Below, piece after piece: positions 51,253 through 53,576 of a stretch of 64,000 nt of DNA. The stretch comes from Bacteriovoracia bacterium (GTDB taxonomy: Bacteria; Bdellovibrionota; UBA1018; JBFWNL01). A model generated the notes under the pieces. It made no database searches. It was not told where the DNA came from and worked only from the letters and a program-made list of their open reading frames with translations. Position 1 is the stretch's first letter. Each line of letters opens with the position of its first letter. Position numbers and translations under genes: made by a program. The stretch is from contig JBFWNL010000007.1 of assembly GCA_050251055.1 (NCBI GenBank), positions 161,612 to 225,611 of the forward strand, read 5' to 3'.

Positions 51253-51444
51253 TTAAGCTTTTGCGTGTCCTTTGGGACCGCCGCTGCCATCGCCCCCCGC
51301 AAATACTTGCGGTGAGCGTTTATTACCTTCGCCGCCTTTTTGTGGCCGGCCTCCGCCGTCTCCACCGCTTCCAGCGAATACCGTCGGAATCGCAAGTGCG
51401 GCTACGATGCACAGAACTACTAAGCGTCTCATCATTGCTTTCAT
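51253..51444 (-). CDS. Small secreted Gly-rich repeat peptide
   Basis: GGAGG RBS; signal peptide ending VFA; repeated VFA-G(S)GG(D)G. Confidence 0.7.
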   Translation of the reverse strand: MKAMMRRLVVLCIVAALAIPTVFAGSGGDGGGRPQKGGEGNKRSPQVFAGGDGSGGPKGHAKA

Positions 51445-51571
51445 ACCAACCTAACCTCCCGTTGTGTTTGAGGCGGTAAGGGGTACTTATTTCTAACGAT
51501 TTCGTCAAACGGTTATTTCGTTGAATTAACGATGTGGTCGTTATAAGAGCGCCTAAGGATTTCGAATTTAT

Positions 51572-52351
51572 ATGATTAATCGTCAAAGTGAAGTTGAAAC
51601 CAGAATTCTTGGGGCTGCCATTGGTGAGCTTCGAAAAAATCTGAACGAACAGAATATTTCTCAAGCCGCCGTTGGCGAAGCTCTTGGATTGAAGCAATCC
51701 GCAGTGTCTAGCTTGCTGCGTGGGCAATCAAAGATTTCAGTGGAACAGCTTTTAAAAATTGCCAAGTTAGCTGGAATTCGGCCGCGGGATTTATTTAGCA
51801 AAGCTGAAACGGCGATGACCCAAAATATTCCCATGCCGTATGAAATCGAAGAGATGCTTTATAAGTCCGAGGCGCACGTGCTGGCATACTCTGCCGCTAC
51901 TCGACCTGTCTCGATTTCGGACCTGGCTAAGGCAGGGATATCTGTGCAGAGCGCCAAGAAAGCGTTCGATGACCTTTGCTCGGTAGGGCTTTTAACTAAG
52001 AAGAAGGACCTCTATTTTCAAACCAATCCAAATCGGACCTATTCCTCTACGAGTAGAGTGCGCCGTACTCCGGTTCATCAACGAATCATGAACATGGCTT
52101 GGTCCTTAATTGATAAAAAACGTGAATCTCCCGACAAAGAAGATGCCTATAGAAAAGCGAGATTCAATTTTTACACAGTGGATAGGCTTACGGTTGCCCA
52201 AGTGAAAGAGCTCGATGCCATGTTATGGCGGGTTTACGAACGGGTCGACCAGTTCCAGCGAGACAACATGGCAAGCGGATATTCCTCGGATGAACCGATG
52301 AAGTTGTGGAATGTGCACTTGATGATGGGGACTCCGCTTGAAACTGATTGA
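51572..52351 (+). CDS. XRE-HTH regulator with DUF4423/TIGR02147-like C-terminal domain
   Basis: ISQAAVGEALGLKQSAVSSLLRG; C-terminus aligns by eye with the 8818 protein. Confidence 0.75.
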   Translation: MINRQSEVETRILGAAIGELRKNLNEQNISQAAVGEALGLKQSAVSSLLRGQSKISVEQLLKIAKLAGIRPRDLFSKAETAMTQNIPMPYEIEEMLYKSEAHVLAYSAATRPVSISDLAKAGISVQSAKKAFDDLCSVGLLTKKKDLYFQTNPNRTYSSTSRVRRTPVHQRIMNMAWSLIDKKRESPDKEDAYRKARFNFYTVDRLTVAQVKELDAMLWRVYERVDQFQRDNMASGYSSDEPMKLWNVHLMMGTPLETD

Positions 52352-53576
52352 GCATCTTAAAAATAGTTCGGTTGATCAGCGAATTTCGCAAGCACGCGCC
52401 TTAAGTGAGTTGGGAAACGCCCTCCGCTATTTAGTATTGCCGTTAGCGGTGTTTGCGGTGCGTAGTAGTGCTTCGGACTTGGTCATAGCTGAAATATTAG
52501 AAACTCTTGGCTTTATCTTAGCTGGGATCTTGGCCCCTCTGATTATTGATCGCTTACCGAAGTTGTTTTCTTTAGTGGCGTTTGACGTAGCCTCTTTGCT
52601 GGTTACTGTGCTTTTGGCATTGGGTATCTATCTAGACTCTCTTCCTGTTTTGTTTATTGGCTCTTTTCTGATGACCTTTACCGATACTTTTCATTCCAGC
52701 AGTCTAAGTGCTGTGACTGCCGACTTTTCTTCAGGAAGCGGAATTTCTATCGCAAAGGGATTTTCCTACCTTCAGTTTCTCATATTGCTTTCGGGCTTAA
52801 TAGGAAGTGCAATCGCATCCGCCCTCGTTAACCGTACTCCACTATATGCATTGCTGATAATTGACGGAGTCACCTTCCTGATCGCGAGTGCTTGGATTTT
52901 CTCAATCGCGTCGAAGTATATTGCAAAAAATAGGGAAGTATCTGTTGCAAAGAGTAGTGCAAGCCTCTCGGCCCTTTTGCGTGATTGGCGAGAAGGGTAT
53001 GTTTTTACGATCAGGAATCGTGAGGTTTATAGCCTTATATTTTCGCAAGCTATTGTTGGAGTTGCGCATGGTCTTATGTCTACCAGCACTATTAGTCATC
53101 ATAAGACCGTGTTTCAGGTTAGCGATTCCAAAGTCGGTATTGCGCAGACGATGAATAAGGTTTTTGCATTTATAGGTGCCGCGGTTCGATTAAGATCCGT
53201 AGAAAGTCCCGAAGCAAGCATGCGTCTTGGCACTCGTATGATGACCCTTGGATACTTTTTGATGAGCATCTTTCCCTATTTCGGGTTTGTTATTGCTAAT
53301 GGGTTGCAACAATTTGGGAACGCCTTGCTAAGTCCTACAAACCGAGCTTTGACGATGGAAAGCACTCCTACAGAGTTGCGAGGGCGTATAGCTGCGTTTA
53401 GAGGTCTGGCAATCGACATCGGAATCTTGCTAGGTAACTTGATGGCATTAGCTATTGTGGCGACCGTAGGCACTCGTTTTATTTTTTTATTAAGTGCATT
53501 GTTTACAGGGTGCACACTGCTTTTGATCGGCCATGGTAGCCAAGCAAAGCTGATCGTGCAGCCCGCTCGGAATTAA
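52338..53576 (+). CDS. MFS transporter
   Basis: About 12 TMs, IIDRLPK motif A, PTELRGRI. Confidence 0.88.
   Translation: MKLIEHLKNSSVDQRISQARALSELGNALRYLVLPLAVFAVRSSASDLVIAEILETLGFILAGILAPLIIDRLPKLFSLVAFDVASLLVTVLLALGIYLDSLPVLFIGSFLMTFTDTFHSSSLSAVTADFSSGSGISIAKGFSYLQFLILLSGLIGSAIASALVNRTPLYALLIIDGVTFLIASAWIFSIASKYIAKNREVSVAKSSASLSALLRDWREGYVFTIRNREVYSLIFSQAIVGVAHGLMSTSTISHHKTVFQVSDSKVGIAQTMNKVFAFIGAAVRLRSVESPEASMRLGTRMMTLGYFLMSIFPYFGFVIANGLQQFGNALLSPTNRALTMESTPTELRGRIAAFRGLAIDIGILLGNLMALAIVATVGTRFIFLLSALFTGCTLLLIGHGSQAKLIVQPARN

Follow-up and report, generated by a model that had tools for sequence, protein, structure and literature searches.

A candidate four-part cassette of glycine-rich peptide, repressor, transporter and antisense RNA at the head of a conjugative transfer operon in Bdellovibrionota

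Conjugation controlled by a peptide, with an antisense RNA as a further layer, is a textbook speciality of Gram-positive bacteria. One Enterococcus switch of this kind is traA/iad/mD of plasmid pAD1. In the comparable switch of pCF10, the regulator is PrgX, the peptide iCF10 is encoded right after the PQ promoter, and anti-Q is transcribed from a convergent promoter (PMC6540685). For RRNPP systems, the published criteria are a propeptide of 10–100 aa, its location beside the receptor gene, secretion through Sec (SignalP) or PptAB, a receptor of ~250–500 aa, and receptor repeats of the tetratricopeptide (TPR) type to which the peptide binds (PMC10075063). We analyzed a 64,000-nt stretch (hereafter the window) of contig JBFWNL010000007.1 of GCA_050251055.1, a Bacteriovoracia bacterium, in which the piece at 51,253–53,576 carries a gene for a small glycine-rich peptide, a divergent XRE-type regulator gene and a gene for a transporter of the major facilitator superfamily (MFS). 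Including a structured element behind the peptide gene, we tentatively interpret the locus as a four-part regulatory cassette that would gate the transfer operon belonging to an integrative conjugative element (ICE), with a pCF10-like build from unrelated parts.

The peptide precursor is encoded by a 63-aa open reading frame (ORF; 51253..51444, minus strand), which is the first minus-strand gene past a 127-bp gap, and the transfer genes lie downstream on the same strand. A Shine-Dalgarno sequence, GGAGG, is located at 51459–51455 (minus strand), 10 nt upstream of the ATG. A previous sequence-only reading of the window had singled out this ORF for its strong ribosome-binding site, its leading position on the transfer strand and its distance of 127 bp from the divergent XRE gene, and all of these features were re-read exactly as described. 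Residues 1–24 (51373–51444) are signal-like and the predicted mature part comprises 39 residues (51256–51372); here and in all other loci, signal peptides were called by eye from the printed sequences. Export and cleavage of the peptide, with Sec as the likely route, are suggested by an N-terminus rich in K/R, a hydrophobic core and an AxA-type site. Judged by the lipobox rule, no lipoprotein signal is evident: none of the cysteines is conserved among 14 aligned peptides, and Cys12 of the window peptide lies within LVVLC with Leu at position −1.

The window peptide contains VFA followed by GSGGDGGG, a GGEG, and a second VFA followed by GGDGSGG, and the units of its mature part are GGDGGGRPQ and GGDGSGGPK. 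The repetition of VFA, to which the sequence-only reading had drawn attention, is present in the window, but the internal copy before the second unit is specific to it; in the other members of the 14-peptide alignment, M, L, H, S, K or R takes its place. Because the internal VFA is confined to the window, a conserved second signal-peptidase site is unsupported.

Related loci were drawn from GTDB genomes, from contigs of metagenomes and from 400 sampled genomes of the phylum. A single-protein query of the genome contigs retrieved none, and an alignment query retrieved the relatives. Full-length relatives of the regulator with upstream DNA are designated type-A loci (n = 15 after merging the duplicates L008=L024=L030, L025=L031, L026=L033 and L027=L037); L009, L014, L017 and L019, which have no upstream DNA, and L015, with 257 nt only, are outside this count. 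Screening of the homologous regulators for a divergent small ORF, as the sequence-only reading had suggested, revealed one at 15/15 type-A loci. Each has basic residues at the N-terminus and a hydrophobic core, in most cases followed by an AxA-type site, and continues with Gly/Asp units. No such ORF was observed at L018 and L028/L040, which match the helix-turn-helix (HTH) part only. The aligned peptides share a layout of signal, GGDGxGxP(Q/K), linker, GGDGxGP(K/R) and short tail. In six-frame translations of 247,213 bases, the strict motif GG[DE]G-x1-3-P[KRQ] gave 13 matches, all in these ORFs and 0 elsewhere. Between the peptide genes of L034 and L035, 22 codons are changed and all 8 nonsynonymous changes fall in residues 1–45, while in the two C-terminal units 5 changes are synonymous and none is nonsynonymous. 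The peptide motif is under purifying selection at the protein level; this selection and the specificity of the motif rule out a chance ORF, and the 63-aa ORF is a real gene. A profile of the peptides matched only 8 proteins among 5.8 billion clusters, all labelled hypothetical or unnamed, and the peptide has no Pfam or NCBIfam family match. It is single-copy in its own genome, as are the regulator and the RNA element.

The regulator (51572..52351, plus strand) has 259 aa and its relatives have 247–260 aa; its XRE assignment is supported by HTH_3 (E = 1e-10). The AlphaFold2 (AF2) model shows an XRE-type HTH domain (residues ~1–83), a winged helix (~85–160) and a helical C-terminus, with a predicted local distance difference test (pLDDT) score of 75 that is low over the C-terminal 90 residues. 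The regulator scored 17.1 bits against PF14394 (DUF4423; cut-off 30) and 18.5 bits against TIGR02147 (cut-off 50), and DUF4423 was matched at E < 0.1 by 7/15 members (best 5.7e-4). A comparison of the regulator family alignment (A2) by hhalign with an alignment (A9) of canonical DUF4423 paralogues, 10 of the 33 that the same genome encodes, gave 95.2% and E = 2.5e-8 over 154 columns, covering the HTH domain, the winged helix and the following helix. This profile-profile run superseded one of A2 against the single protein at 8818, which had given 3.5%. The Atlas model of the regulator matched DUF4423 clusters with a TM-score of 0.70 over 160 residues. On the strength of the hhalign and Atlas results, the regulator is a short and remote member of the TIGR02147/DUF4423 superfamily, below the curated cut-offs. 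Of the C-terminal likeness to the TIGR02147 protein at 8818 proposed in the sequence-only reading, the HQRIMNMA~H..ML.LA stretch is included in the profile alignment. Compared with the canonical family, which occurs in Fibrobacter and Bdellovibrionota, the regulator is shorter by ~35 residues between the HTH domain and the winged helix.

Structural superposition with VIA-align gave Z-scores of up to 12.2 for XRE domains and of 7.2–7.5 for residues 85–182 against ArsR/SmtB chains. Foldseek against the PDB gave no match at E <= 0.001 for the regulator; the HTH domain alone was matched. A PDB sequence search with A2 likewise retrieved HTH domains only, and a Pfam scan at E <= 0.1 assigned a TPR family to none of the 15 members. 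A prediction of the complex between the regulator (A2) and the mature peptide (residues 25–63; peptide alignment A3) scored 0.00, which counts neither for nor against an interaction. The MFS gene (52338..53576, plus strand) starts with TTG at 52338 and encodes 412 aa with a Pfam MFS_1 match (E = 1.8e-15). It overlaps the stop codon of the regulator gene by 14 nt, in agreement with the sequence-only reading, and recurs as an operon partner in other loci; because of the overlap, the two genes probably form one operon.

The regulator subfamily is rare, with 5 relatives besides the regulator itself in the collection of 5.8 billion clusters; among 1.84 billion proteins it has 27 representatives at E <= 1e-30. 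The canonical family is abundant in the same genome: 33 DUF4423/TIGR02147 paralogues, such as that at 8818-9708 (plus strand), score above the Pfam cut-off; for a genome of 3.8 Mb, this orphan regulator family is very large. The glycine-rich divergent peptide is absent beside all 30 of the 33 paralogues that were examined. Divergent ORFs of <=130 aa with a hydrophobic N-terminus occur beside 2/30 of them and are unrelated to the peptide. Distant matches of the regulator in other families of the phylum (L043, L044, L048, L052 and L055; E = 1e-10 to 1e-13) have no upstream small peptide gene. In complete genomes of another family of the phylum, the proteins of the L043, L044 and L052 type (~241–249 aa; E = 1e-11 to 1e-13 against the regulator profile) have the same layout of HTH domain and winged helix, and their genes are always divergent from a gene for ~424 aa, with no small peptide gene. 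This protein is a conserved core-genome relative of the cassette regulator. A full-text search of the literature returned no ligand or function of the DUF4423 family, the only mention being a protein in a proteome table.

The 127-bp divergent control region (51445..51571) contains a 6-3-6 palindrome, AACGAT-GTG-GTCGTT, at 51528–51542 and three direct copies of TAACGATNTNGTC at 51494–51506, 51527–51539 and 51554–51566. A related palindrome (consensus ATTGAT-N3-ATCAAT, >=5/6 arm pairs) lies 3–47 nt upstream of the regulator start in 12/15 type-A loci; the background is 84 perfect 6-3-6 palindromes per 171,479 positions. We regard the palindromes and the TAACGATNTNGTC copies as putative operators.

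Many loci share a conserved stretch immediately 3′ of the peptide gene, an element of ~110 nt whose sense strand forms a three-way junction. A covariance model, R1, was built from six copies. In the genome of the window, R1 has a single match at 51119..51240 (minus strand; 39.2 bits, E = 7e-7), between the peptide gene and the genes of a type IV secretion system (T4SS), and in the order it has copies in 15/116 genomes, one or two per genome. Across 22 aligned copies, which were fitted to the model and include kin that are not independent, 83% of the cells are paired and 19/25 pairs show compensatory double changes; 0/500 shuffles reached such values and slid controls were 23–44% paired. A second fold, in which the 5′ strand pairs with the central CAUGAGCC segment around hairpin P2, has 14/18 covarying pairs. 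Its hairpin is 91.1% paired on the strand opposite to the peptide versus 68.8% on the peptide strand; the difference arises from three conserved A.C/C.A positions that turn into G.U. On this antisense strand the hairpin is followed by a U-tract (a sense A-run) in 22/22 copies. Hairpin and U-tract together are the signature of a Rho-independent terminator for transcription against the peptide and transfer genes, a direction in which it has no coding gene to end. In the window, the candidate terminator is the hairpin at 51185-51230 with the T-run at 51231-51236 (plus strand).

The element is probably a convergent antisense small RNA (sRNA), with its 5′ end perhaps near 51130. When cut at a −10-like box, every copy folds as a small 5′ hairpin plus the terminator, ~70–87 nt long in most cases. 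Boxes resembling −10 and −35 elements (TATAAG-like and CTCACA-like sequences) occur in part of the loci only, and an antisense promoter is only suggested by them. Both strands of the window copy fold far better than shuffles, with z-scores of −4.3 (minus strand) and −5.0 (plus strand). No relevant Rfam match was obtained at E <= 10 in 50900–51700 or at E <= 1 in L013, L016, L111 and L113. A terminator scan of 50500–52000 returned 1 terminator-like site, unrelated to the structured element.

T4SS genes stand behind the peptide in only 3/15 type-A loci (the window, L013 and L016). In the others, the genes behind it are unrelated and encode, among other products, a DUF3011 protein, two large unknown proteins and a histidine-kinase-like protein together with CsgG; the peptide and regulator pair therefore travels as a cassette. 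The sequence-only reading had placed the pair at the head of an ICE transfer operon. Such a position holds for several elements, but it is not specific to ICEs, since 12/15 type-A loci precede unrelated genes. A VirB4 query detected related T4SSs in 20 other genomes of the 400-genome sample. Among 17 loci anchored on VirB4, 4 have the arrangement of MFS and regulator genes divergent from genes for a glycine-rich signal-bearing peptide, a pilin and VirB4; a fifth, L096, was recognized through the RNA model only, and ~12/17 showed no such peptide ORF in the upstream DNA at hand. At L093 (G326) and L095 (G338), the place of the cassette upstream of the pilin gene is taken by an ORF that, by eye, resembles an AAA+ activator of the sigma-54 type whose C-terminus carries a Fis-like HTH. 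These loci may represent one ICE family with interchangeable control modules.

Use of the RNA model as the sole anchor retrieved a matching gene order with other types of regulator and peptide in the 15/116 genomes of the order, mostly at T4SS heads. It yielded 12 new loci, including L125, which lacks upstream DNA. All 11 loci with upstream DNA have a divergent regulator of ~260–285 aa (one partial), and 9/11 have a signal-like, glycine-rich peptide that ends just upstream of the element; L124 is doubtful and L131 has none. Peptides of the GGDG..P(K/Q/R) type pair with A2 regulators and those of the GGHGG..GGNG type with a regulator family unlinked to A2 (hhalign 0.7%), while further GGNG and GIGN types go with other regulators. 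The regulators of L114 and L115 are remote relatives of A2 (hhalign 97–98%). Two congeneric peptides, L126 (G368) and L127 (G287), contain 2 versus 3 GQGGN repeats and retain the C-terminal LGGHEST end, which suggests variation of the repeat number in the mature peptide. At L115 (G278:C22, 4316-9506), the gene for the remote regulator relative (98%) diverges from a small ORF whose product has a hydrophobic N-terminus and GGGGHGGGGPKG. Behind this leading ORF come MobC-like, T4 coupling protein (T4CP), excisionase-like and integrase genes with no T4SS genes in between, and the RNA model has no match at L115. The locus may be a mobilizable element that uses a similar switch.

From these observations, a mechanism can be proposed for the window. 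The TIGR02147/DUF4423-like repressor would bind the 6-3-6 palindromes in the 127-bp region and repress both the peptide/transfer promoter and its own. The first gene of the regulated transcript would give a Sec-exported precursor and from it a disordered 39-aa peptide with two GGDGxGxP(K/Q) units, as judged from the sequence. The convergent antisense sRNA would pair or collide with read-through transcripts between the peptide and pilin genes, and basal promoter activity would then give peptide but little T4SS. More speculatively, the exported peptide or a fragment of it could report the density of element-carrying cells and feed back on the repressor via the co-transcribed MFS, which would take it up or gate the transport of a ligand. 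If the analogy with iCF10 and PhrI holds, the most likely effect of a peptide encoded by the element would be to keep transfer off among donors. The cassette also stands before unrelated chromosomal operons.

Peptide feedback on the regulator via the MFS is a speculative step, argued from analogy, that we consider possible without counting on it. It is favoured because no other reading explains why a cytoplasmic regulator always comes with a matching peptide, and usually with a transporter, although the genes behind them differ, and because the list of parts reproduces that of pCF10. Several points weigh against it. The sensor part consists of the winged helix and the poorly modelled helices and has no known peptide-binding fold. 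The GGDGxGP(K/R) unit is kept among regulators that are only 35–50% identical and is less 'private' than typical pheromones. The nearest named relatives of the MFS are exporters, and 7/15 type-A loci (L010, L011, L012, L025, L034, L035 and L036) have no MFS. Further points weigh against the four-part mechanism as a whole. A sigma-70 scan of 50500–52000 on both strands returned 0 promoters. The element of the window is divergent (39 bits versus 98–125 for the model's own sequences), and wobble counts leave the strand of helix P1 undecided (17 G.U versus 21 A.C). To act between cells, the 39-aa peptide must cross the outer membrane; glycine-rich disordered segments of colicins thread through porins, and a similar outer-membrane route is a lead only. 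We know of no established case of cytoplasmic-receptor peptide signalling in diderm bacteria, and peptide systems of this sort have been described as Firmicutes-specific (PMC10075063). The broadest form of the proposal is a diderm peptide-pheromone system across one Bdellovibrionota order, in which glycine-rich, disordered Sec-exported peptides would cross the outer membrane, be handled by the dedicated MFS and be read by TIGR02147/DUF4423 repressors, with the cis-antisense sRNA as a second layer and several cognate types serving conjugation and other operons. We consider this form doubtful.

The alternative that survives best is that the regulator and the MFS form a repressor/efflux pair. The regulator would sense a small molecule handled by the MFS, and the peptide would be a regulated secreted product without feedback, acting as an envelope or extracellular effector. 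DHA3, EntS and MefA, the nearest named relatives of the MFS, are exporters, and all were matched far below their cut-offs: the window MFS gave E = 1.4e-27 and 97 bits against TIGR00900 (DHA3 H+ antiporter; cut-off 319.6), and the MFS of L114 gave 143 bits against TIGR00900 (cut-off 319.6) and 61 against EntS (cut-off 324). Only the membership in the MFS_1 superfamily is secure for the cassette MFS. The re-import of the peptide by the MFS, as put forward in the sequence-only reading, is not favoured by this likeness to exporters. The overlapping regulator and MFS genes recur together: a homologue directly follows the regulator in the window, L024, L014, L026, L027, L038 and L039, which corresponds to 6/13 of the type-A loci whose DNA extends both upstream and beyond the regulator; L014, which lacks upstream DNA, comes in addition. 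An MFS also follows the regulator at L112 and L114, and among the RNA-anchored loci with enough DNA an MFS_1 protein does so in 6/8, the other 2 having family-less ORFs of 408 and 414 aa. The resemblance of the middle domain to the small-molecule- and metal-sensing winged helices of ArsR/SmtB also fits such a pair, and conservation of the peptide unit among divergent loci would point to a common target rather than to private signals. The pair leaves unexplained why the peptide is constant beside the regulator while the genes behind it vary, why seven type-A loci have the peptide without an MFS, and why the peptide type shifts with the regulator type. We consider it unlikely, if less so than the alternatives below.

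SecM, VemP and MifM are secretion-monitoring arrest peptides, in which an exported small ORF with a C-terminal motif and a structured RNA precedes envelope-related genes. By analogy, the peptide gene could be a cis-acting monitoring leader whose Sec-dependent arrest, through pausing at the C-terminal Gly/Pro unit, remodels the downstream RNA and sets envelope-gene expression. The signal-like N-terminus, the position of the best-conserved motif near the C-terminus, the structured RNA right behind it and the frequency of exported proteins (pilin, T4SS) among the downstream products agree with this idea. In contrast to those leaders, the cassette has a variable spacing of 10 to 47 nt between the stop codon and the first helix, so a ribosome at the peptide C-terminus would usually miss the helix; moreover, a GGDG-type unit also occurs at the mature N-terminus, the hairpin with the best support works on the opposite strand, and the downstream Shine-Dalgarno sequence is outside the conserved element. 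A leader of this kind is improbable. A glycine-sensing attenuator leader was set aside because the N-terminus is signal-like, because Asp, Pro and Lys residues are conserved, and because the stop-to-helix distance varies.

A bacteriocin-like module, in which a glycine-rich exported antimicrobial peptide is accompanied by an MFS for export or immunity and controlled by the repressor, would suit a product that is small, predicted to be exported, glycine-rich and often cationic, and that is encoded on a mobile element with a transporter and a regulator. However, no homology to bacteriocin families was detected in Pfam/NCBIfam, the peptide has its own Sec-type signal, genes for modification or immunity are absent, the MFS is missing from half of the type-A loci, and the position at T4SS heads and the antisense RNA are atypical; we consider it still less probable than a leader. 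Finally, small signal-bearing proteins are common in T4SS loci and the gene heads T4SS operons in the window, L013, L016 and several other elements, but a role as an accessory T4SS part (an entry-exclusion or VirB7-like small envelope protein) is hardly credible given the lack of a conserved lipobox cysteine, the 12/15 type-A loci without a T4SS gene behind the peptide and the ~12/17 related T4SS loci whose available upstream DNA lacks such an ORF.

The transfer module downstream of the cassette occupies 40231..50637 on the minus strand. After the structured element, the T4SS genes are headed by a candidate VirB2/TrbC-like pilin (50583..51095, minus strand; 170 aa with a long N-terminal extension), labelled from its position and hydrophobic pattern. 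It has no Pfam match; in every related T4SS locus, the ORF directly before VirB4 conserves the C-terminal 80–100 residues. Pfam/NCBIfam matches identified, all on the minus strand, VirB4 (TraG P-loop; 48751-50637), TrbI/VirB10 (46206-46979), a MobC-like protein (44754-45461), T4CP (43261-44817), an HTH_17 excisionase-like protein (41495-41860) and a tyrosine integrase (40231-41484). The module also contains ORFs of 228 and 366 aa listed between VirB4 and TrbI/VirB10, a Gly-zipper protein, and a 454-aa ORF listed between T4CP and HTH_17, likewise on the minus strand. The GC content of the island is ~45–50% versus ~57% to its left; it drops from ~38–40 kb and stays low until ~58 kb. A direct-repeat scan of 38000–64000 gave no att site, only two short chance-like pairs; no tRNA gene was found in the 64-kb window, and the contigs of 4 DNA sequencing runs over 38501–58500 contained neither an excised or empty-site form nor element boundaries. 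Since att repeats, a tRNA gene and an excised form were not found, the element is termed an ICE on gene content alone.

Other genes of the island were also noted. Directly after the MFS gene, within 53632-55057 (plus strand), a 327-aa ORF has a HipA_C-like kinase domain (E = 2.1e-8) and is overlapped by a 155-aa ORF without a family. A HipB-like partner is not present, unless the XRE regulator of the cassette fills that role; this could be a toxin-antitoxin-like stabilizer of the island. Two paralogous ORFs of ~125 aa (55863-56237 and 57389-57766, plus strand), with signal-like N-termini and a common Cys/His-rich stretch, flank a DUF3703 protein. They are followed at 57886-63981 (plus strand) by an outer-membrane factor, a resistance-nodulation-division (RND) pump (ACR_tran, E = 2.6e-277) and a cation diffusion facilitator (CDF) transporter, and the genes from 55863 to 63981 are probably metal-efflux cargo of the island. 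To the left of the island, a 1005-aa phosphoenolpyruvate carboxylase with an N-terminal GNAT acetyltransferase domain is encoded at 35276-38293 (minus strand).

Whatever the role of the peptide, the locus provides a new family of small glycine-rich repeat peptides with predicted secretion, a rare regulator subfamily that links XRE repressors with the orphan TIGR02147/DUF4423 family, and a structured RNA that is outside Rfam, covaries strongly and marks the head of an ICE family. At ~2.5 kb, the cassette is compact and portable. If the proposed mechanism is true, it would be a convergent system made from unrelated parts in a Gram-negative-type phylum, and cytoplasmic-receptor peptide signalling would no longer be confined to Firmicutes. 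It would also represent the first genetically encoded peptide-pheromone system of diderm bacteria and provide the first ligand class for the orphan TIGR02147/DUF4423 family. In a full-text literature search, neither the cassette nor the regulation of ICEs in Bdellovibrionota turned up.

In the streptococcal Rgg/SHP and ComR/ComS systems, the peptide gene is often the divergent neighbour of the regulator gene, and the target genes behind the peptide gene vary. The cassette shares with these RRNPP systems an XRE-type HTH regulator adjoining a small peptide gene (PMC10075063). The superpositions with PrgX (2aw6, Z = 9.4), ComR (5jub, Z = 7.7) and Rgg2 (4yv6, Z = 7.9) are confined to the ~70-residue HTH domain. 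Unlike Rgg and ComR, the cassette regulator has no TPR sensor, and the peptides of those systems are hydrophobic and exported by PptAB. With regard to the five RRNPP criteria, three properties are present, namely a propeptide of 63 aa, adjacency at 127 bp and a receptor of 259 aa. TPR-type repeats were found neither in Pfam nor in the AF2 model, and structural matches reached the HTH domain only; for this reason the cassette is not a member of RRNPP, and it may function like one.

With ICEBs1 (ImmR and RapI-PhrI) and pLS20 (Rco and Rap-Phr), the cassette shares an XRE repressor at divergent promoters, which are putative here, and an element-encoded peptide, here predicted to be exported, that in those systems reports donor density (PMC6540685). 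Their peptides act via a separate Rap protein and are imported by Opp, whereas family scans of the window proteins revealed no Rap, ImmA or TPR gene.

The closest correspondence is with prgX/prgQ/anti-Q of pCF10 in E. faecalis. In pCF10, an HTH repressor adjoins the promoter of the conjugation operon, a gene for a small exported peptide comes directly downstream, and a convergent antisense RNA acts on the transcript before the transfer genes (PMC6540685). The putative counterparts in the cassette are the divergent HTH repressor, the peptide gene in first position and, before the pilin and VirB4 genes, the probable antisense RNA with its conserved terminator. Their parts share no sequence homology. 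The cassette receptor has a DUF4423-like winged-helix part in place of a TPR-like domain, and its gene is divergent and upstream instead of overlapping the peptide transcript. The cassette peptide is longer, glycine-rich and repeated, with a classical signal-like N-terminus, and its partner is an MFS in a diderm Bdellovibrionota host, where pCF10 has PrgZ/Opp. The cassette thus looks like new parts in a known kind of switch, composed of peptide, repressor and antisense RNA, that has so far belonged to Gram-positive plasmids.

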